The notes under the pieces were generated by a model. That model was given only the letters and a program-made list of their open reading frames with translations, was not told where the DNA came from and searched no databases. Positions 10,702 through 24,397 of a DNA stretch of 25,534 nucleotides are shown piece by piece; positions within the stretch are counted from its first letter, which is position 1, and the number at the start of each line of letters is the position of its first letter. Made by a program: the position numbers and the translations under genes. The DNA is from a virus (lineage: Duplodnaviria > Heunggongvirae > Uroviricota > Caudoviricetes), in the IMG/VR virus record IMGVR_UViG_2778261167_000011, positions 1-25,534 of that record; one strand, given 5' to 3'.

Positions 10702-12468
10702 ATGAACACCACACTGACACCCGCAGATCTCGATCCCCGTCGGCAGGCCATGCTGCTGTACTTTCAGGGATACCGCGTAGCCCGCATTGCTGAAATGCTG
10801 GGCGAGAAAGTTGCAACCGTTCACAGCTGGAAAAAACGCGACAAGTGGGGTGACTATGGGCCGCTGGATCAGATGCAGCTCACCACCGCCGCACGCTACT
10901 GCCAGCTCATTATGAAGGAGCACAAAGAAGGGAAAGATTTCAAAGAGATTGACCTGCTGGCGCGCCAGTCGGAGCGCCATGCGCGGATCGGCAAGTTTAA
11001 CAATGGCGGCAACGAAGCCGACTTAAACCCTAACGTCGCCAACCGCAACAAAGGCCCGCGCCGTCAGCCGGAAAAGAACGTTTTCACCGATGAACAGATT
11101 GAGAAGCTGGAAGAAATCTTCCATTCCTCCATGTTCAACTACCAGCGCCACTGGTGGGAAGCCGGAAAAACCAACCGCATCCGCAACCTGCTGAAGTCAC
11201 GCCAGATCGGCGCGACCTTCTATTTTGCCCGTGAAGCCCTGATTGACGCCCTGCTGACCGGGCGTAACCAGATTTTCCTTTCCGCCAGCAAGGCACAGGC
11301 CCACGTCTTTAAGCAGTACATCATCGACTTCGCCAAAGAAGTGGAGGTGGAGCTGAAAGGCGATCCGATGGTGCTTCCTAACGGGGCCACGCTGTACTTC
11401 CTCGGCACCAATGCCCGCACGGCCCAGAGTTACCACGGCAACCTGTATCTGGATGAATATTTCTGGATACCGAAATTCCAGGAGCTGCGCAAAGTGGCTT
11501 CCGGTATGGCTATTCACAAGAAATGGCGACAGACCTATTTTTCCACGCCATCCAGTCTGACACACAGTGCTTATCCGTTCTGGTCCGGTGCGCTGTTCAA
11601 CCGTGGGCGCAACAGAGCCGATAAGGTGGACATCGACCTGTCCCACAGCAATCTGGCCCCCGGCCTGCTGTGCGCAGACGGGCAATACCGCCAGATAGTC
11701 ACCGTGGAAGATGCGGTGCGAGGCGGCTGTAACCTGTTCGACCTTGACCAGTTGCGCATGGAGTACAGCCCTGACGAATACCAGAACTTGCTGATGTGCG
11801 AGTTCGTGGACGATCTCGCGTCCGTGTTCCCGCTCAGCGAATTGCAGGCGTGCATGGTGGACAGCTGGGAAGTCTGGACCGACTTTCATGCACTGGCCCT
11901 GCGCCCGTTTGGCTGGCGCGAAGTGTGGATCGGTTATGACCCGGCAAAAGGTACGCAGAACGGCGACAGCGCCGGATGCGTGGTGGTGGCACCGCCAGCC
12001 GTGCCAGGCGGTAAGTTCCGCATTCTTGAGCGTCACCAGTGGCGCGGAATGGACTTTCGCGCCCAGGCTGACGCCATCAAAAAACTGACCGAACAGTACA
12101 ACGTGACCTATATCGGCATCGACTCAACCGGCGTTGGTCACGGGGTTTACGAGAACGTGAAAGCGTTTTTTCCTGCCGTCCGGGAGTTTGTCTACAACCC
12201 CAACGTTAAAAACGCCCTGGTACTCAAGGCCTACGACATTATCAGCCACCGCCGTCTTGAGTTTGACGCCGGGCACACCGACATTGCGCAGTCATTCATG
12301 GCAATCCGTCGCGCCACCACCGCCAGCGGCAACCGCCCGACCTATGAAGCCAGCCGCAGCGAAGAAGCCAGCCATGCCGATCTGGCCTGGGCAACAATGC
12401 ACGCACTGTTTAACGAACCACTGCAGGGCGAGTCCGCCAATACCAGCAATATTGTGGAGATTTTTTGA
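10702..12468 (+). CDS. P: Terminase large (ATPase) subunit (P2 gpP-like)
   Basis: 588-aa ORF divergent from O and followed by the portal gene with overlapping stop/start (TGATG). Confidence 0.93.
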   Translation: MNTTLTPADLDPRRQAMLLYFQGYRVARIAEMLGEKVATVHSWKKRDKWGDYGPLDQMQLTTAARYCQLIMKEHKEGKDFKEIDLLARQSERHARIGKFNNGGNEADLNPNVANRNKGPRRQPEKNVFTDEQIEKLEEIFHSSMFNYQRHWWEAGKTNRIRNLLKSRQIGATFYFAREALIDALLTGRNQIFLSASKAQAHVFKQYIIDFAKEVEVELKGDPMVLPNGATLYFLGTNARTAQSYHGNLYLDEYFWIPKFQELRKVASGMAIHKKWRQTYFSTPSSLTHSAYPFWSGALFNRGRNRADKVDIDLSHSNLAPGLLCADGQYRQIVTVEDAVRGGCNLFDLDQLRMEYSPDEYQNLLMCEFVDDLASVFPLSELQACMVDSWEVWTDFHALALRPFGWREVWIGYDPAKGTQNGDSAGCVVVAPPAVPGGKFRILERHQWRGMDFRAQADAIKKLTEQYNVTYIGIDSTGVGHGVYENVKAFFPAVREFVYNPNVKNALVLKAYDIISHRRLEFDAGHTDIAQSFMAIRRATTASGNRPTYEASRSEEASHADLAWATMHALFNEPLQGESANTSNIVEIF

Positions 12469-13493
12469 TGGGAAAGAGTAAGAAGAACCGCGCTGCGGCG
12501 ACGAAACAGATCCAGCATAAAAACCAGACTTCAGCCGAAGCATTCAGCTTCGGTGATCCCGTTCCTGTTCTGGACCGCCGCGAACTGCTGGACTATGTGG
12601 AATGCGTACAGATGGACCGTTGGTATGAGCCACCAGTGAGTTTCGACGGCCTGGCGCGAACCTTCCGCGCCGCCGTACACCACAGCTCACCGATTGCAGT
12701 AAAGTGCAACATTCTGACCAGCACCTATATCCCTCACCCGTTGCTCAGCCAGCAGGCTTTTTCACGTTTTGTGCAGGACTATCTGGTATTTGGTAATGCC
12801 TACCTGGAGAAACGCACGAACCGCTTCGGTGAAGTTATCGCCCTTGAACCTGCCCTGGCAAAATACACTCGACGCGGATTAGACCTGGATACCTACTGGT
12901 TTGTGCAATACGGTATGGCAACCCAGCCGTATCAGTTCACGAAAGGCAGCATCTTTCATCTGATGGAACCGGATATTAATCAGGAGATCTACGGCCTGCC
13001 TGGCTATCTTTCTGCTATTCCATCCGCTCTGCTCAACGAGTCCGCCACGCTGTTCCGCCGGAAGTATTACATTAACGGCAGTCATGCAGGCTTCATCATG
13101 TACATGACCGATGCCGCGCAAAACCAGGAGGATGTGAACAACCTCCGCAACGCAATGAAAAGCGCCAAAGGACCGGGTAACTTCCGCAACCTGTTTATGT
13201 ACTCGCCTAACGGCAAAAAGGATGGGCTTCAGATCATTCCTCTGTCAGAAGTCGCGGCGAAGGATGAGTTTCTGAATATCAAGAACGTGAGCCGGGACGA
13301 CATGATGGCGGCGCACCGCGTACCGCCGCAAATGATGGGGATTATGCCTAGCAATGTCGGGGGGTTTGGGGATGTAGAGAAAGCTAGTAAGGTATTTGTG
13401 CGGAATGAGCTTTTACCTTTGCAAAAATTGATGCAAGCGCTTAATTGTTGGCTGGATGAAAATATAATTACATTTAATAAATATATTTTGTAG
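12468..13493 (+). CDS. Q: Portal protein (P2 gpQ-like)
   Basis: Start placed at ATG 12468 overlapping the P stop (track ORF starts at a TTG at 12465); size and position match P2 Q. Confidence 0.93.
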   Translation: MGKSKKNRAAATKQIQHKNQTSAEAFSFGDPVPVLDRRELLDYVECVQMDRWYEPPVSFDGLARTFRAAVHHSSPIAVKCNILTSTYIPHPLLSQQAFSRFVQDYLVFGNAYLEKRTNRFGEVIALEPALAKYTRRGLDLDTYWFVQYGMATQPYQFTKGSIFHLMEPDINQEIYGLPGYLSAIPSALLNESATLFRRKYYINGSHAGFIMYMTDAAQNQEDVNNLRNAMKSAKGPGNFRNLFMYSPNGKKDGLQIIPLSEVAAKDEFLNIKNVSRDDMMAAHRVPPQMMGIMPSNVGGFGDVEKASKVFVRNELLPLQKLMQALNCWLDENIITFNKYIL

Positions 13494-13508
13494 TTCCTGT
13501 TTATAATT

Positions 13509-13530
13509 AACGCCTGCCTGAGCAGGCGTT
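13509..13530. terminator. Bidirectional intrinsic terminator between convergent Q and the DUF262 gene
   Basis: Perfect hairpin AACGCCTGC-ctga-GCAGGCGTT with A/T-rich flanks on both sides. Confidence 0.6.
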
Positions 13531-13533
13531 CTT

Positions 13534-15315
13534 TCATTTAAAACGTGTTGCAATATCTGCTGCTTCGATAACTGTTGCTTTTACGGTATTATCGCCAGCA
13601 CGATAATAAATATCCCCATCATAACTAGAATAAGATGCTAGAAGTGGAATTGTAATAACTATAACTCCATAACCATAAAAGTCATTATAGTCAATCAAAC
13701 TCACCACTTGTGATTTAAGAGGCTCACTCAAAGCAGATTTTTTCAACTCATCGCAAAAACGTCTATAATATTCTTCCATTGATATGCCGAGTTTAATAGC
13801 TTCTCTTTTAACACCAACAACACTTCTCTCACCAACTACATGTGCATCTATATCATCAAGCTCTTTTACTCTACTTGTATCACTTGGTTTATCTGTTACA
13901 CCAAGCAATAACTTACCAACTACACCGTTCTTGTTACCTTTACCGATGTTAGCAATAGCACAAATTGTGGAGAATATTTTCTCATGAATGCCATCATCAA
14001 TAGTTCGCTCTCCGCCTAACATCAACAAACCCTGTTTCAGTTCATAATTTGCAAGCTCTATTTCAGATCTTCGTAAAATATCCTCAATATCCACCGTATT
14101 GTGAGAATTATAGATATGACTGCTATCGGCGCTATCAATAAAGTTATCTTTAATCAAGCCTATGATAGAATTAATATTCTTTCTTCTCTCTTCCCCACCA
14201 GTAGCAGATCTTTTAGTATCTAGTCGAGTGACTATATTATTAAGATTGTCTTTTACACCTTTATAATTATTAATCTTCTTATTTTCTTTAATGAGTAATT
14301 CATGAAAAGCAATAAATAACACAGCAAATATGGCTGGGAAAGCATTTGTAGTACGTTTAGTAAAGATTAAATCCCTGAGTTTAATTTCACCGTCACTATT
14401 ACATACTTTTGTTATTTCCTGGATGCAGAATTTAAACTCTTCTGCAAATTTTCCTTCACCATAAACATTAATAGCAGAGCTAATACGACTATACTCTTCA
14501 TCTTCATTATTATAAATCTGATCAAGCGCATCTTTGGAACGATCTATTAACTTACCTCCAACAATACAAGCTGCTATATCTGCAATGCATTGCTCATCCA
14601 TACTGTCACGAAGGTCTGTTGAACGTAAGATCCCATGTTTTACCCAAAATACTTCTTCCGACTGAATTTGGTAACCATGTTTAGTTAGTGGCAAATCAAT
14701 GCTAATAGACGGCATTTGCTCTAAAAGCAATATGTCGTCAGATACATCCCCCCTGATAGAACAGGCAATATCCCTAACCATATTTGAAAATTTATTTTGT
14801 ATACCAGCCTGGCGCCTTTCTTGATCACTAAGTCTATGCCCGTATGTATTAATTCTATCAAAAACATCATTTATTTCGTTCTCAGTCGCATTACGCATAA
14901 TGGACATTGCAAGAGAATAATCCAATAACTGAGTAACCTCACGCTGACTTAAAAGATTATCAGCTTTCACTGCAACAAACTTACCTTCATCCGCTCGATT
15001 TTTCGCTGTGGGAAAAGCGTCCAGATTAAAACGTTTTCCATCAAGTGATTCATATCCTGTTTCGATGAAAGACATTATTGCATGTAATCTTTGTAGGCCA
15101 TCAATTATTTCATATGTGCCAGGATCATTTTCCCTTTCCGCGAGAAGAACTGCAGGAATTGGATATTTTTTTTGAATGGATTCAATTAATTTTTGTTTCT
15201 CTATTGCAGTCCAAACTAATTTTCGTTGATAACGTCTATTAACAAATATCTTACCTTCAGTAAACCATGAATAAATAGTTTGTATAGAAGTTGTTTGCGG
15301 TAATAGTTCAGCCAT
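13534..15315 (-). CDS. DUF262 / ParB-like nuclease-domain protein, 593 aa, AT-rich cargo gene
   Basis: ATG at 15315 with AAGGA RBS; N-terminal YEIIDGLQRL (DGQxR-type) motif characteristic of DUF262 as in GmrSD/BrxU/SspE/DndB N-domains; C-terminal ~350 aa unassigned. Composition is much more AT-rich than the flanking phage genes. Confidence 0.8.
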   Translation of the reverse strand: MAELLPQTTSIQTIYSWFTEGKIFVNRRYQRKLVWTAIEKQKLIESIQKKYPIPAVLLAERENDPGTYEIIDGLQRLHAIMSFIETGYESLDGKRFNLDAFPTAKNRADEGKFVAVKADNLLSQREVTQLLDYSLAMSIMRNATENEINDVFDRINTYGHRLSDQERRQAGIQNKFSNMVRDIACSIRGDVSDDILLLEQMPSISIDLPLTKHGYQIQSEEVFWVKHGILRSTDLRDSMDEQCIADIAACIVGGKLIDRSKDALDQIYNNEDEEYSRISSAINVYGEGKFAEEFKFCIQEITKVCNSDGEIKLRDLIFTKRTTNAFPAIFAVLFIAFHELLIKENKKINNYKGVKDNLNNIVTRLDTKRSATGGEERRKNINSIIGLIKDNFIDSADSSHIYNSHNTVDIEDILRRSEIELANYELKQGLLMLGGERTIDDGIHEKIFSTICAIANIGKGNKNGVVGKLLLGVTDKPSDTSRVKELDDIDAHVVGERSVVGVKREAIKLGISMEEYYRRFCDELKKSALSEPLKSQVVSLIDYNDFYGYGVIVITIPLLASYSSYDGDIYYRAGDNTVKATVIEAADIATRFK

Positions 15316-15449
15316 GAAACAAATTCCTTCTTCTGGATAGAATTTTATAATATAGAAACTGAAAAGGTTAAGTTACCATCAAAAATGATGATAGCAACAA
15401 AAAGATACCATTTTGTAATTTTTTGTTCAGATTTTCATATCAGAGCGCG

Positions 15450-15468
15450 CTCGTATCCCCGCCACGCC
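15450..15468 (-). other. Putative cos (cohesive end) core
   Basis: Minus strand reads GGCGTGGCGGGGATACGAG followed by GCGCGCTCTGA. From memory, this resembles the 19-nt P2/186 cohesive ends (GGCG(A/T)GGCGGGGAAAGCA...) and the following GCGCGCTGA. Orientation relative to Q is as in P2. Confidence 0.45.
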
Positions 15469-15999
15469 TGCCCGCTTTATGTAGTAGTTTTCATGCACCT
15501 GCATGACATGAGCAAAAGCCCGCCAGTTCTGGCATGTCTTAGCCAAACCGATCCTCAAACGATCATGCGAACTCATGCAGCATAGACATGCATGACATGA
15601 AAATCGGTCAAACCTTGAAACCAGTCATAAATATGAGCCAGCTTAATACACACTAAATAGCTGCGTCTAATACTGCTACACCTGCCGTTTACTGACATGT
15701 GGCATGTCGCGTAAGGACAACATACTGTAGGCCAGATACAGCAGGATCAGGCGAAGAAAACGGCCCCACGCCTTACCCAGCAAGAGCCAAGGGCCAAGGG
15801 CTAACCGAAAGTGGAACACTATTCCGCGCAGTTATTTAGTGTCAGCTCTTTTGAGCTAAAATCAAGTTTCAACATGAGGGTCTGTGCAGGCTTTCTCATC
15901 CCGCTAATTTATACAGCACACCTATATATGGCTATGAGTTTGTCATGCCCGCTAATCCTGTTAGGATTAGCCTTGTTTTTTTACGATTGGGATAGGGAT

Positions 16000-16806
16000 A
16001 TGAAGAAATTAACTGGCGTAATTGCTTTTGCTCTGCTGCTTACTGCTTGTGACAAACCGAAGATCGATGCATCAAGCGATCAGTCGATGAAAGAGTCCAT
16101 TCAAAAAGTAAGAGAGTCCTTACCTGCAGATAAAAAAGCTCAGTTCGATGATGCAGTTAAAGTCGTTGCCTTTAGCCAAATCAACATGAGAGAGCTAATG
16201 CAGGCTGGAACGTCTTCTGGGGACGTCTACGAAACAAAAATTAAGTCAGCGTTGGAAGGTAAAACTGGTGATGAGGTTATAAATTACGCACAAACTATTC
16301 GCCTTGAGCGTGAGAAGAGAGAGAAAGAACAGGCTCTGCAAGAAATAAAAGAACTGGAAGCCAAACAAACCTCTGCAACACAGGCTGCGGAAAAAATGAA
16401 AGCCTTCAAGGTCGAACGTTCCCGTTTTTATTTCCAGAAAGAGGATTACGGCAATGATCAGCCAATTCTGGATATTAGCGTTGAAAACGGAACAGACAAA
16501 GCGGTTGCCAGAGTATTCTTCAAAGGAGTTATTGCCAGCCCAGGAAGAAGCGTCCCTTGGTTCTCTGACGTCTTCAACTATAAAATTTCTGGAGGTCTGG
16601 AACCAGGTGAGAAAGCCAACTGGAAATTAGCCCCTAATAGATACTCTGATTGGGGAAAACTTAAAGTTCCGGCTGATGCTATATTTACCGTCACAGTCAT
16701 TGGCCTTGAAGACGCAGATGGGAAATCGATCTATGGTGACGCCGAGTTTTCAGAACGCGATGCTGACAGACTGAATCAACTTAGAGATAAGTACCTTTCT
16801 AAATAA
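16000..16806 (+). CDS. Lipoprotein of unknown function (cargo gene)
   Basis: Start placed at ATG 16000 (MKKLTGVIAFALLLTACDK: signal peptide plus lipobox LLTAC). The track ORF extends upstream to a GTG at 15811. Charged coiled-coil-like middle region (EREKREKEQALQEIKELEAKQ). Confidence 0.75.
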   Translation: MKKLTGVIAFALLLTACDKPKIDASSDQSMKESIQKVRESLPADKKAQFDDAVKVVAFSQINMRELMQAGTSSGDVYETKIKSALEGKTGDEVINYAQTIRLEREKREKEQALQEIKELEAKQTSATQAAEKMKAFKVERSRFYFQKEDYGNDQPILDISVENGTDKAVARVFFKGVIASPGRSVPWFSDVFNYKISGGLEPGEKANWKLAPNRYSDWGKLKVPADAIFTVTVIGLEDADGKSIYGDAEFSERDADRLNQLRDKYLSK

Positions 16807-16914
16807 TCAAAATTAAAGCTACTTCAGCATAGTCCCTGAGAATATATATCAGGGACTACCAAATCACGGCAGATACCCCTTAGTTAAATAATGCTAAACG
16901 CTTAGAAAGAGACC

Positions 16915-17214
16915 ATGAAACGTATAACTTTCTCCTTTACGTTAGTAGCAATCATCATAGCCTTAGCTGGATGTGCTTTGCCAGATAAAGACGGCGACTT
17001 CGGAGCTTATGTTCATGCCTGTCAGCAATATGCATACGGAAAATCCTATGCCTTTGAGAATAGAGACTTCGCGTATAAGGTCTGTAAGGACGCGGCGAAA
17101 CTGTGGAGTGACGAAGTTCCTGGCTATATCATCAGGCAAATTCAACTACATCCTGAAATACCCAGCGAAGAAATTAAATATGCAGCCATGGCCGGCTCTT
17201 TGGGGAACAACTAA
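16915..17214 (+). CDS. Small lipoprotein of unknown function (cargo gene)
   Basis: 99 aa; MKRITFSFTLVAIIIALAGCALPDKDG (signal peptide plus lipobox LAGC); followed by an intrinsic terminator. Confidence 0.7.
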   Translation: MKRITFSFTLVAIIIALAGCALPDKDGDFGAYVHACQQYAYGKSYAFENRDFAYKVCKDAAKLWSDEVPGYIIRQIQLHPEIPSEEIKYAAMAGSLGNN

Positions 17215-17227
17215 ATCAACTTATGAG

Positions 17228-17249
17228 AAAGGGGCTTAATGCCCCTTTT
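17228..17249. terminator. Bidirectional intrinsic terminator
   Basis: AAAGGGGC-ttaat-GCCCCTTTT hairpin with A- and T-runs on either side, between the convergent lipoprotein genes and the small minus-strand ORF. Confidence 0.65.
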
Positions 17250-17281
17250 CGGTTCCCTTATCAAGTCCTAACGAAACAAGC

Positions 17282-17470
17282 TCAACTGATTACATCCATC
17301 GACCTACTGTATTCATGGCTTCGAATTTTCGCCATCAACTCATCAGTCAATTCAGAAACCCACTGCAGAGCTAGCCCCTTCTCTTCATCACTACACTCAC
17401 TAGCCGCTACAAGCTTAAGAAAAAAATCAATGCGCTGGAGCTTCAAAGACTCCAAAAAATAGTCCTGCAT
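17282..17470 (-). CDS. Small hypothetical protein (62 aa) downstream of A
   Basis: ATG at 17470 with strong RBS (AGGAGGAAAG) and an AT-rich promoter-like region upstream (17480-17600). The track ORF is longer (to 17572) but its 5' part looks non-coding. Confidence 0.45.
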   Translation of the reverse strand: MQDYFLESLKLQRIDFFLKLVAASECSDEEKGLALQWVSELTDELMAKIRSHEYSRSMDVIS

Positions 17471-17623
17471 CTTTCCTCCTATAACACCATACGCAATACT
17501 GTACATATAACCACTGTTTATATTTACAGTATATAATAATCTTACTGATGTAAAACGTTTTTTTACGTTCATCAGCCTGATATGCCTGGTATTATTAAGA
17601 GCACGAATTGTTAACCCGCGTGA

Positions 17624-23140: not shown

Positions 23141-24397
23141 ATGGATGAATGTATAGTCGAGATGTTATTAATAGTGAATAAAGATACTTCCTTTGGACGC
23201 TCTCCGTCAGCCTATAAAAAAATAATTGAGGCCAGTGAGGAAGTCATATTTTCACCAAAAGAATTAAAATTCAAAGAACAGTCATTTAAATATGATATAT
23301 CAGAATATGGAAGCAATAAAGAAACTATCTCTGTAAAATTAACACTAAACGACGTTAGTGAAGATAATTTAATCACTTTCTCAAGATTAACCAGACTCTT
23401 CAAAAAAATATCTAGCGAAAGTAATTTAGGTAGCACTCAAATTATTTGGGATGATATAAGCAAATATTACTCAATTCAGGCTTATCCATTAATCCATGAA
23501 ATTGAAAACTTAATGAGAAAATTAATAACAAAATTCATGATACATAACGTTGGATTGTCTTGGACAAAAGATTCAGTGCCGAAGGAATTTTCAGAAGCAT
23601 TGAAAAAATCCGAAAAAAACACAGAATATAATGAACATAATTTAATGTATCAAGTTGACTTTATTGAACTTTCTGACTTTATATTCAAATCTTACCGAGA
23701 GATTGAAATAACAGATTTGATCCGAAAATTAACCCCGCTTGAATTTAAAGACATTAATGCTGATATATTCTCAGAATTGAAAAAAATCGTTCCCAGAACA
23801 AACTGGGAAAAATTCTTTGAGTCAAACATCGAAGCAAATGCTGACACTATAATAAAAAATTGGAGTATTTTATATCGACTCAGATGCAAAGTTGCTCATA
23901 ATAGAGATTTTACTAAACAAGATCTTGATGAAGTAATTCGCCTTACAAATACACTGAGTCCAATACTAAAAAAAGCAATTGAAAAAACCGAGACTCTGAC
24001 TATTGATCCGAAGGAAAAAGAAGAATTAACATCCCAGTTTGAGAATGAGTTTTCTAACAATACTAAAAGTGATGAAGAATTATTCAAAGACAGAGTGCTT
24101 GAATTATATCTACAAATAAGACATTTATATCAACTTACACATTCAAACAGTGAAAATATTAATAGCTATTACAAAGTAATACAAACAACATTCCAAAATG
24201 TTTTGCATGACGAAAAGTTCAATGCCGAAGACGTAATGAATTTAATTAATATCTCAACTAATGATGATGTTCTGAGAAAATGTGATAATTTCGAGATACA
24301 TGATTTAATGAATATTTGCCATTCTATTAAAGAACTTGTTAATTTTAAAATATCAAGTTTTGAAGCTGGGTCAAATGAAGCAGTTAAAAATGAATGA
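23141..24397 (+). CDS. AT-rich 418-aa hypothetical protein with an Rx4H (HEPN-like) motif; candidate abortive-infection/defence cargo
   Basis: ATG at 23141 with GAGGAG RBS, 46 bp after the cI stop; Lys/Asn/Glu-rich; RLRCKVAHNRD matches the HEPN Rx4-6H signature; followed by an intrinsic terminator. Confidence 0.8.
   Translation: MDECIVEMLLIVNKDTSFGRSPSAYKKIIEASEEVIFSPKELKFKEQSFKYDISEYGSNKETISVKLTLNDVSEDNLITFSRLTRLFKKISSESNLGSTQIIWDDISKYYSIQAYPLIHEIENLMRKLITKFMIHNVGLSWTKDSVPKEFSEALKKSEKNTEYNEHNLMYQVDFIELSDFIFKSYREIEITDLIRKLTPLEFKDINADIFSELKKIVPRTNWEKFFESNIEANADTIIKNWSILYRLRCKVAHNRDFTKQDLDEVIRLTNTLSPILKKAIEKTETLTIDPKEKEELTSQFENEFSNNTKSDEELFKDRVLELYLQIRHLYQLTHSNSENINSYYKVIQTTFQNVLHDEKFNAEDVMNLINISTNDDVLRKCDNFEIHDLMNICHSIKELVNFKISSFEAGSNEAVKNE

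Follow-up and report, generated by a model that had tools for sequence, protein, structure and literature searches.

A DUF262-Schlafen fusion gene beside cos in a P2/186-type prophage, a candidate single-protein anti-phage system related to EcoSlfn7

The closest described relative of the gene reported here is EcoSlfn7, a DUF262-Slfn fusion of the pSlfn class from Escherichia coli UC4224 (Perez Taboada et al., Nat Microbiol 2026, PMC13056530). The pSlfn catalogue holds 5,930 members, and seven Enterobacterales genes were assayed in MG1655, each from its native promoter; EcoSlfn7 cut T7 plating ~540-fold and acted on a broad range of phages, T7 most strongly (PMC13056530). The EcoSlfn7 data are a plating phenotype only; the mechanistic work in that paper (PMC13056530) was on RorSlfn5, an Ig-like fusion which is triggered by the T5 tail assembly chaperone, cuts the anticodon arm of tRNA and loses defence in an E15A/D20A mutant. 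For the DUF262-Slfn class, PMC13056530 gives no trigger, substrate, activation mechanism or mutant. Here we analyse a gene that appears to be of the same kind, found in a 25,534-nt stretch of viral DNA (Caudoviricetes; IMG/VR record IMGVR_UViG_2778261167_000011, positions 1 to 25,534), the whole of which we call the window. The window is a P2/186-type prophage with tail, lysis, capsid, terminase, portal, replication endonuclease gpA, CII/CI and integrase genes, and the gene in question, a 593-amino-acid (aa) open reading frame (ORF), lies between the portal gene and cos (Table 1). We consider it probable that its product, a protein of the DUF262-Schlafen class, is by itself a complete anti-phage system, carried as swappable portal-to-cos cargo, in which a sensor module switches on a tRNA-cutting Schlafen nuclease.

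The EcoSlfn7 gene was located in UC4224 as WP_028985442.1 (589 aa). Over 592 aligned residues, with 4 gaps, the window protein is 60% identical and 77% similar to EcoSlfn7, and identity is 70.8% in the DUF262 domain, 57.6% in the helical middle domain and 52.6% in the Schlafen domain. The two proteins have a three-domain architecture and all DUF262 and Schlafen motifs in common, and both are single-gene systems. They also occupy the same slot: in UC4224, as in the window, the portal stop codon is followed by an opposite-strand gene and then by cos, in a P2/186-type prophage that is collinear with the window. Unlike EcoSlfn7, however, the window allele falls in a separate clade with Pluralibacter (89%), and its leader (134 vs ~55 nt), terminator hairpin and portal 3' end all differ from those of the EcoSlfn7 locus.

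The window gene has every sequence-level feature by which membership was judged, so on sequence grounds it is a member of the DUF262-Slfn class, and we regard it as a defence candidate of this already described kind, not as a new type of system. A first-pass annotation, made by a model from the DNA letters alone, had proposed a likely anti-phage nuclease of an uncharacterised family. The first part of this proposal looks right, with a predicted Schlafen domain whose Ex4ExK site is intact, but “uncharacterised” is wrong, as EcoSlfn7, with 60% identity from end to end and the same slot, has been shown to defend (PMC13056530). EcoSlfn7 is, at least in spirit, the full-length match to a characterised family which that annotation had named as counting against it, but the family has no HNH domain. 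A literature search for three protein accessions found no mention of them.

The N-terminal domain matches Pfam GmrSD_N/DUF262 over residues 16-170 (E=1.6e-22), confirming a DUF262 call that had been based on the string IDGLQRL (residues 70-76). Its three motifs, QRxxxW (Q30-W35), DGxQR (D72-R76, nt 15088-15102) and FxxxN (F152-N156), are invariant in 40 family members. The PADLOC hidden Markov model (HMM) for NsnA, which covers DUF262 plus ParBDB, matches residues 7-383 (E=8e-31). ParBDB is a DNA-binding helical domain common to NsnA, GmrSD, SspE and DndB (PMC12065111). The 593-aa protein has no Pfam match to DUF1524/HNH, even at E<=1, so the architecture is indeed as non-canonical as had been suspected from the apparent lack of a DUF1524 His-Me finger. 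The C-terminal ~350 aa, however, are not unassigned as first thought, and consist of the ParBDB-like helical domain and a Schlafen/AlbA_2 domain.

The Pfam SLFN_AlbA_2 match is weak in the full-length protein (E=1.2e-3), and for the isolated C-terminal domain the score, 24.8 bits, falls short of the 25.3 cutoff. The same model matches 13/13 family C-termini (best 9e-11), a precomputed PF04326 label is present on most homologues, and the match coordinates show that the AlbA_2 model begins at the residue equivalent to E420. Three features, the Ex4(E/D)xK motif, the Schlafen box and a third acid, are hallmarks of active Schlafen nucleases (PMC13056530 and SLFN-pAgo work), and the window protein has all of them: the first is E420-LANY-E425-L-K427 (nt 14035-14058), the Schlafen box (SAFAN) is C452-AIA-N456, and the third acid ends a glycine/hydrophobic core, G467-KLLL-G472-VT-D475. 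E420, E425, K427, N456 and D475 are invariant across 40 sequences, and the catalytic motif aligns to IExxxxEFK or EExxxDFK in relatives of only 28-39% identity.

Profile searches of solved structures, using the full family and the C-terminal domain, gave no significant match, so structural kinship was found by fold comparison only. This used an AlphaFold2 model of a single chain built from a 40-sequence alignment (mean predicted local distance difference test, pLDDT, 83.4; predicted template modelling score, pTM, 0.82). For the C-terminal domain, the best-scoring fold was the human SAMD9 AlbA_2 domain (7ksp, 10.0), followed by DIP2311 (3lmm, 9.4), a RecG-related N-terminal domain (2kyy, 8.1), SLFN12 (8.1), SLFN11 (7.7 and 7.1) and SLFN5 (7.4). 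The N-terminal part matched BrxU (9.2), SspE (7.3) and the DUF262 protein of a DndBCDE-DndI entry (9jfl, 6.2), with ParB, KorB and sulfiredoxin folds at lower scores. Foldseek agreed with this picture for both parts. Structure prediction and fold comparison, which had been suggested as a check, thus place the C-terminal domain with SAMD9/SLFN folds and the N-terminal part with BrxU/SspE.

The analysis establishes the domain architecture, the intact catalytic and NTP-binding motifs (NTP, nucleoside triphosphate), the full-length homology to EcoSlfn7, the common locus and the stand-alone context. In the mechanism we propose, DUF262 (with its intact NTP-binding motifs) and the ParBDB-like domain would most likely form a sensor or switch that binds nucleotide and (phage) DNA, and the C-terminal single-lobe Schlafen domain would be a metal-dependent ribonuclease. 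Two Schlafen domains would probably be brought together by a change of oligomeric state, and the nuclease, licensed in this way, would cut tRNA, causing translation shutdown and a lower phage yield. We infer defence by this allele, the tRNA substrate, sensing of DNA or NTP by DUF262, and gating by oligomerisation. Several described systems have comparable parts. Two other prokaryotic Schlafen effectors, RorSlfn5 and SLFN-pAgo, cut tRNA and require the Ex4(D/E)xK site to do so. In SLFN-pAgo, the single-lobe Schlafen domain needs two things for activity: ATP-driven oligomerisation, by which two domains pair as a mammalian-like horseshoe, and recognition of a DNA target, which licenses the cut. 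In GmrSD and SspE, DUF262 is the sensor and NTPase that switches on the nuclease fused to it (summarised in PMC12065111), and activation of the SLFN11 tRNase by binding of single-stranded DNA has been reported.

Conservation is highest in the presumed sensor (~71% identity) and lowest in the nuclease (~50%), which is the reverse of pSlfn5. Because the presumed sensor is more conserved than the nuclease, a variable sensor that tracks a phage protein fits poorly, and an invariant ligand such as DNA or NTP is favoured, the nuclease being the part that diversifies. ParB proteins are CTP-gated dimerisation clamps, and the dimer state of BrxU changes on nucleotide binding. A more specific form of the mechanism, which we offer tentatively, is that DUF262-ParBDB is an NTP-gated, DNA-loading, ParB-like switch whose dimer state, set by nucleotide and DNA, unites two single-lobe Schlafen domains into an active tRNase. 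If so, the protein would correspond, in a single bacterial chain, to DNA-activated SLFN11, and a “GmrSD sensor” could drive an RNA-directed abortive-infection output instead of DNA restriction. It would also mean that the Schlafen part diversifies, either in its choice of tRNA target or in escape from phage inhibitors, and that alleles in one prophage slot (e.g., the window gene and EcoSlfn7) differ in output or inhibitor sensitivity.

Among other explanations, the one that survives best is type IV restriction resembling that of GmrSD/BrxU, where DUF262 recognises modified or foreign DNA and the Schlafen domain is a DNase in the place of HNH. We think this unlikely, along with the restriction of modified DNA which the first-pass annotation had implied. 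No DUF1524/HNH is present (Pfam), every characterised Schlafen-family effector in the literature reviewed cuts tRNA or rRNA, and the effector fold here is that of the tRNA-cutting Schlafens. T7 DNA is unmodified. EcoSlfn7 was most active on this very phage (PMC13056530), and in that paper the activation of RorSlfn5 was assayed by an SOS reporter.

It is less probable still that the C-terminal AlbA_2 domain only binds nucleic acid, making the protein a ParB-like NTPase/DNA-binding factor that clamps or occludes phage DNA without any nuclease. Joint Genome Institute (JGI) annotations (“DUF262/Putative DNA-binding domain”) point this way, as does the occurrence of AlbA_2 in non-nuclease regulators, e.g., DIP2311 and RecG-related N-terminal domains. 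However, E420, E425, K427 and D475 are invariant even at ~30% identity, and the same residues are catalytic and defence-essential in RorSlfn5 and SLFN-pAgo.

The window protein (WP_000818977.1) is found in 18 of 5,426 complete E. coli genomes, including E. coli W and its derivatives, and the portal gene is always adjacent. Of these copies, 16/18 show 100% nucleotide identity and keep every motif. The UC4224 allele is present in 3 genomes. Outside E. coli, the nearest relatives are in Pluralibacter (89%), and the next tier is flat at ~58-63% identity, spanning Xanthomonas, Paraburkholderia, Achromobacter, Dickeya, Pantoea and cyanobacteria. In three distant genomes the neighbours are wholly different (transposases; a ParDE pair; a phage capsid remnant), suggesting that the gene works alone and moves horizontally. 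A 1.8-kb ORF in 35% GC DNA with >2000 homologues is far beyond chance.

An exhaustive search with only the Schlafen domain gave 320 clusters (50% identity) at E<=1e-3 and 183 at E<=1e-10, and almost every full-length match was ~580-620 aa long, its Schlafen domain spanning ~400-590. GmrSD_N is present in eight of ten distant representatives; in seven of these AlbA_2 also reaches E<=1e-3, and the remaining one, P0261, was picked up through its Schlafen-domain match. The other two (P0174 and P0208; metagenomic, ~700 aa) have a HARE-HTH and/or sigma70-r4 helix-turn-helix (HTH) module N-terminally instead of DUF262; they are the closest DUF262-less relatives of the Schlafen domain, have the Ex4DxK variant of the motif and represent another way of joining a DNA-binding sensor to a Schlafen effector. 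Since the distant representatives carry GmrSD_N or HTH modules, this Schlafen clade seems to be consistently paired with DNA-binding N-terminal modules.

A third E. coli allele, WP_063081156.1 (588 aa; locus L010 4326-6092, strain Ec-FL1-1X, NZ_CP066836.1), is present in 9 complete genomes, and its DNA is ~70% identical over 61% of the gene. The element that carries it is a P4-like satellite at a tRNA-Leu gene, where it stands between integrase and psu. Two cos-adjacent defence hotspots, P2 and P4, were described by Rousset et al. 2022, so the family is in both of them: P2 with two diverged alleles, and P4 through the satellite-borne WP_063081156.1. No mention of the DUF262-Slfn architecture occurs in the main text of Rousset 2022, of Vassallo 2022 or of the 2026 P2/P4 hotspot survey.

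Within the window, GC content is 0.32-0.38 across 13501-15500 (ORF ~35%), compared with ~0.55-0.59 in the structural genes (prophage ~56%), and 100-nt windows show an abrupt fall at ~13400 and a recovery at ~15440. In P2 and 186, just ~170-190 bp separate the end of the portal gene from cos, whereas the window interval from portal stop to cos is ~1.96 kb and is occupied by the 593-aa gene. A P2 cos consensus sequence gave no match with <=3 mismatches allowed, so cos was placed via the annotated phage 186 cos end instead: its first 13 nt (GGCGTGGCGGGGA) match 13/13 to window 15468..15456 on the minus strand. The surrounding cos island is conserved across three prophages (window, E. coli W and UC4224). 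The gene is thus located between gpA and gpQ, beside cos, in a P2-like prophage. All of this bears out what was proposed at first reading, namely an AT-rich, minus-strand ORF between Q and cos that forms single-gene cargo in the cos-proximal P2 hotspot, and we conclude that the DUF262-Schlafen gene is AT-rich, horizontally acquired, single-gene cargo beside cos. Rfam and tRNA scans of the window gave no matches.

The borders of this cargo can be drawn by comparison with the other two prophages. The portal-through-cos region is essentially identical between the window and E. coli W, where the leader is 100% identical. Identity to UC4224 is ~90-95% along most of the portal gene but drops from ~92% to 65% and then 43% (last ~100 nt plus terminator), and homology restarts exactly at the cos core. 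Because identity drops late in the portal gene and returns at the cos core, the swapped unit runs from ~13400, inside the portal 3' end, to ~15449, its two recombination junctions lying within the portal gene and at the cos core. Portal 3' ends (window 13400-13493; UC4224 locus L003 6026-6150) diverge between prophages with different DUF262-Slfn alleles. This divergence of the AT-rich portal 3' end suggests that the portal's C-terminal codons and the terminator hairpin are exchanged along with the cargo cassette.

The gene had also been credited with its own expression signals, and here the claims hold in part. An RBS-like AAGGA (RBS, ribosome-binding site) lies ~9 nt 5' of the ATG, and a promoter-like TTAACC-18-TAAAAT is at 15371..15342, but promoter-like sites are not enriched over shuffled sequence (10 found, 9.3 expected), so the case for this candidate promoter comes only from its position and from the analogy with EcoSlfn7 (native-promoter expression). 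A bidirectional terminator common to the cargo and Q had been proposed as well. The hairpin does lie between the convergent stop codons, at a place equivalent to a terminator in the P2 and 186 annotations, but a T-rich tail follows it on the + (portal) side alone, which bears out just half of the proposal; the hairpin sequence is unlike the UC4224 and 186 counterparts. UC4224 has a different leader, and because its gap from cos to ATG is only ~55 nt, the EcoSlfn7 native promoter may overlap cos. In the same place (L003 7908-8102), RefSeq has a small “hypothetical protein” pseudogene with an internal stop, which overlaps the EcoSlfn7 start and spans the cos region.

Least probable of all is that the gene is non-defence cargo (involved in prophage, cos or packaging biology), an inactive allele or a gene drifting to loss: it does abut cos, with its leader beginning directly at the cos core, and in strain EC43, 1/18 E. 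coli carriers, the annotation splits the region into two coding sequences, but the copies in 16 genomes are nucleotide-identical with intact motifs, the family is widely distributed beyond phages, where its contexts are unrelated, sister alleles are in both known cos-adjacent defence hotspots, and EcoSlfn7 defends (PMC13056530).

Table 1. Positions in the window of the cargo gene and its domains, its flanks and the second variable slot.
Feature	Position	Strand	Remarks
593-aa ORF, DUF262 + ParBDB-like helical domain + Schlafen fusion	13534..15315	-	ATG start; identical to WP_000818977.1
DUF262 (GmrSD_N, ParB-like), residues 1-185	14761..15315	-	Pfam match and three motifs
ParBDB-like helical domain, residues ~186-395	14131..14760	-	PADLOC NsnA HMM; helices in AlphaFold2 model
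Single-lobe Schlafen/AlbA_2 putative nuclease domain, residues 396-593	13537..14130	-	Pfam, motifs, fold comparison
AT-rich 134-nt leader, cos to start codon	15316..15449	-	RBS-like AAGGA, promoter-like TTAACC-18-TAAAAT
cos core (GGCGTGGCGGGGATACGAG on minus strand)	15450..15468	-	Within conserved cos island ~15436-15600
GC-rich hairpin AACGCCTGC-CTGA-GCAGGCGTT	13509..13530	.	9-bp stem, between convergent portal and cargo stop codons; tQ/tW position
Portal gene (P2 Q / 186 W homologue), conserved hotspot flank	12468..13493	+	
AT-rich last ~95 nt of portal ORF, portal-side recombination junction, part of swapped cassette	13400..13493	+	GC 0.31 at 13400
Second independent variable slot, cos-to-gpA side, outside DUF262-Schlafen system	15609..17600	.	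GC 0.42-0.46
DUF6694-family lipoprotein (phrog_7468)	16000..16806 (PGAP-start equivalent)		Second slot
99-aa ORF (phrog_7666)	16915..17214		Second slot
96-aa ORF	17282..17572	-	Second slot

Two other parts of the prophage are variable. The second slot in Table 1 is separated from the DUF262-Schlafen cassette by the cos island; DinI-like and small hypothetical genes occupy it in E. coli W and UC4224, and PADLOC gave no match for its ORFs in the window. Between the CI repressor and integrase genes is a second AT-rich (GC ~0.29-0.31) single-gene cargo encoding 418 aa (23141-24397, +), a place which in E. coli W holds a KAP P-loop NTPase instead. Matches of the 418-aa protein are to a Swt1-like HEPN domain (weak, E=5.5e-4) and to PDC-M34B in PADLOC (E=4e-7). 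Identical E. coli copies (174 contigs) are named “HEPN domain-containing protein”, Klebsiella and Citrobacter have 98-99% copies, and Pseudomonas, Bacillus and cyanobacteria have relatives of ~30% identity with HEPN_Swt1 or HepT-like domains. No near-DNA match to the gene turned up among 5,426 complete E. coli genomes, nor did any PHROG match it. We consider it a candidate HEPN RNase-type defence or abortive-infection (Abi) gene.

For the DUF262-Schlafen gene, the analysis provides a specific functional annotation that applies to the widely used E. coli W and 17 other complete E. coli genomes, in place of the misleading RefSeq/PGAP name “GmrSD restriction endonuclease domain-containing protein”. 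A further result is that the family is in both cos-adjacent hotspots, with the P2 cassette spanning the portal 3' end to the cos core. How the DUF262 module controls the Schlafen nuclease, and what its ligand is, are questions for the whole class and not particular to this locus. As a second natural allele, 60% identical and from the same locus as EcoSlfn7, the window gene would be a useful partner for domain swaps and specificity mapping.

The comparison with other known systems follows from the two halves of the protein. GmrSD, BrxU and SspE share the DUF262 N-terminus but the window protein lacks their DUF1524 His-Me finger, and its effector has a Schlafen fold, so its probable substrate is RNA, not DNA. 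Since the window protein has no HNH domain, we rejected GmrSD/BrxU membership. The PADLOC run that had been suggested did give HMM matches, to NsnA and PD-T4-2_A, but the partner genes of both systems are missing. NsnA of Menshen is the best PADLOC match, over DUF262 and ParBDB; in the window protein, however, the effector is fused in cis and not separately encoded. Menshen (NsnABC) was rejected as there is no NsnB ABC-ATPase or NsnC gene, the flanks being the portal gene, cos and then the DUF6694 lipoprotein. The PD-T4-2_A match (E=2e-18) covers the DUF262 part only (residues 14-184), and PD-T4-2 was rejected because no PD-T4-2_B partner gene lies beside the window gene.

As prophage cargo, the window gene resembles P2 old/tin and other hotspot genes in being AT-rich and located in the gpA-to-gpQ variable region near cos. 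It is on the portal side of cos, whereas old and tin are on the gpA side in P2.

On the effector side, RorSlfn5, SLFN-pAgo, SLFN11/12/13/14 and SAMD9 likewise have a Schlafen C-lobe-like fold with Ex4(E/D)xK, a Schlafen box and a third acid. A mammalian-type two-lobed Schlafen was rejected, as the window protein has one ~190-aa C-terminal AlbA_2 domain and no N-lobe; prokaryotic single-lobe Schlafen domains have been described in SLFN-pAgo work. The window protein follows the same logic as RorSlfn5, SLFN-pAgo and the mammalian SLFNs, in which a sensor is paired with a Schlafen effector. The sensor elsewhere is an Ig-like domain (RorSlfn5), an Argonaute (SLFN-pAgo) or a helicase, and in the window protein it would be a ParB-like NTPase.

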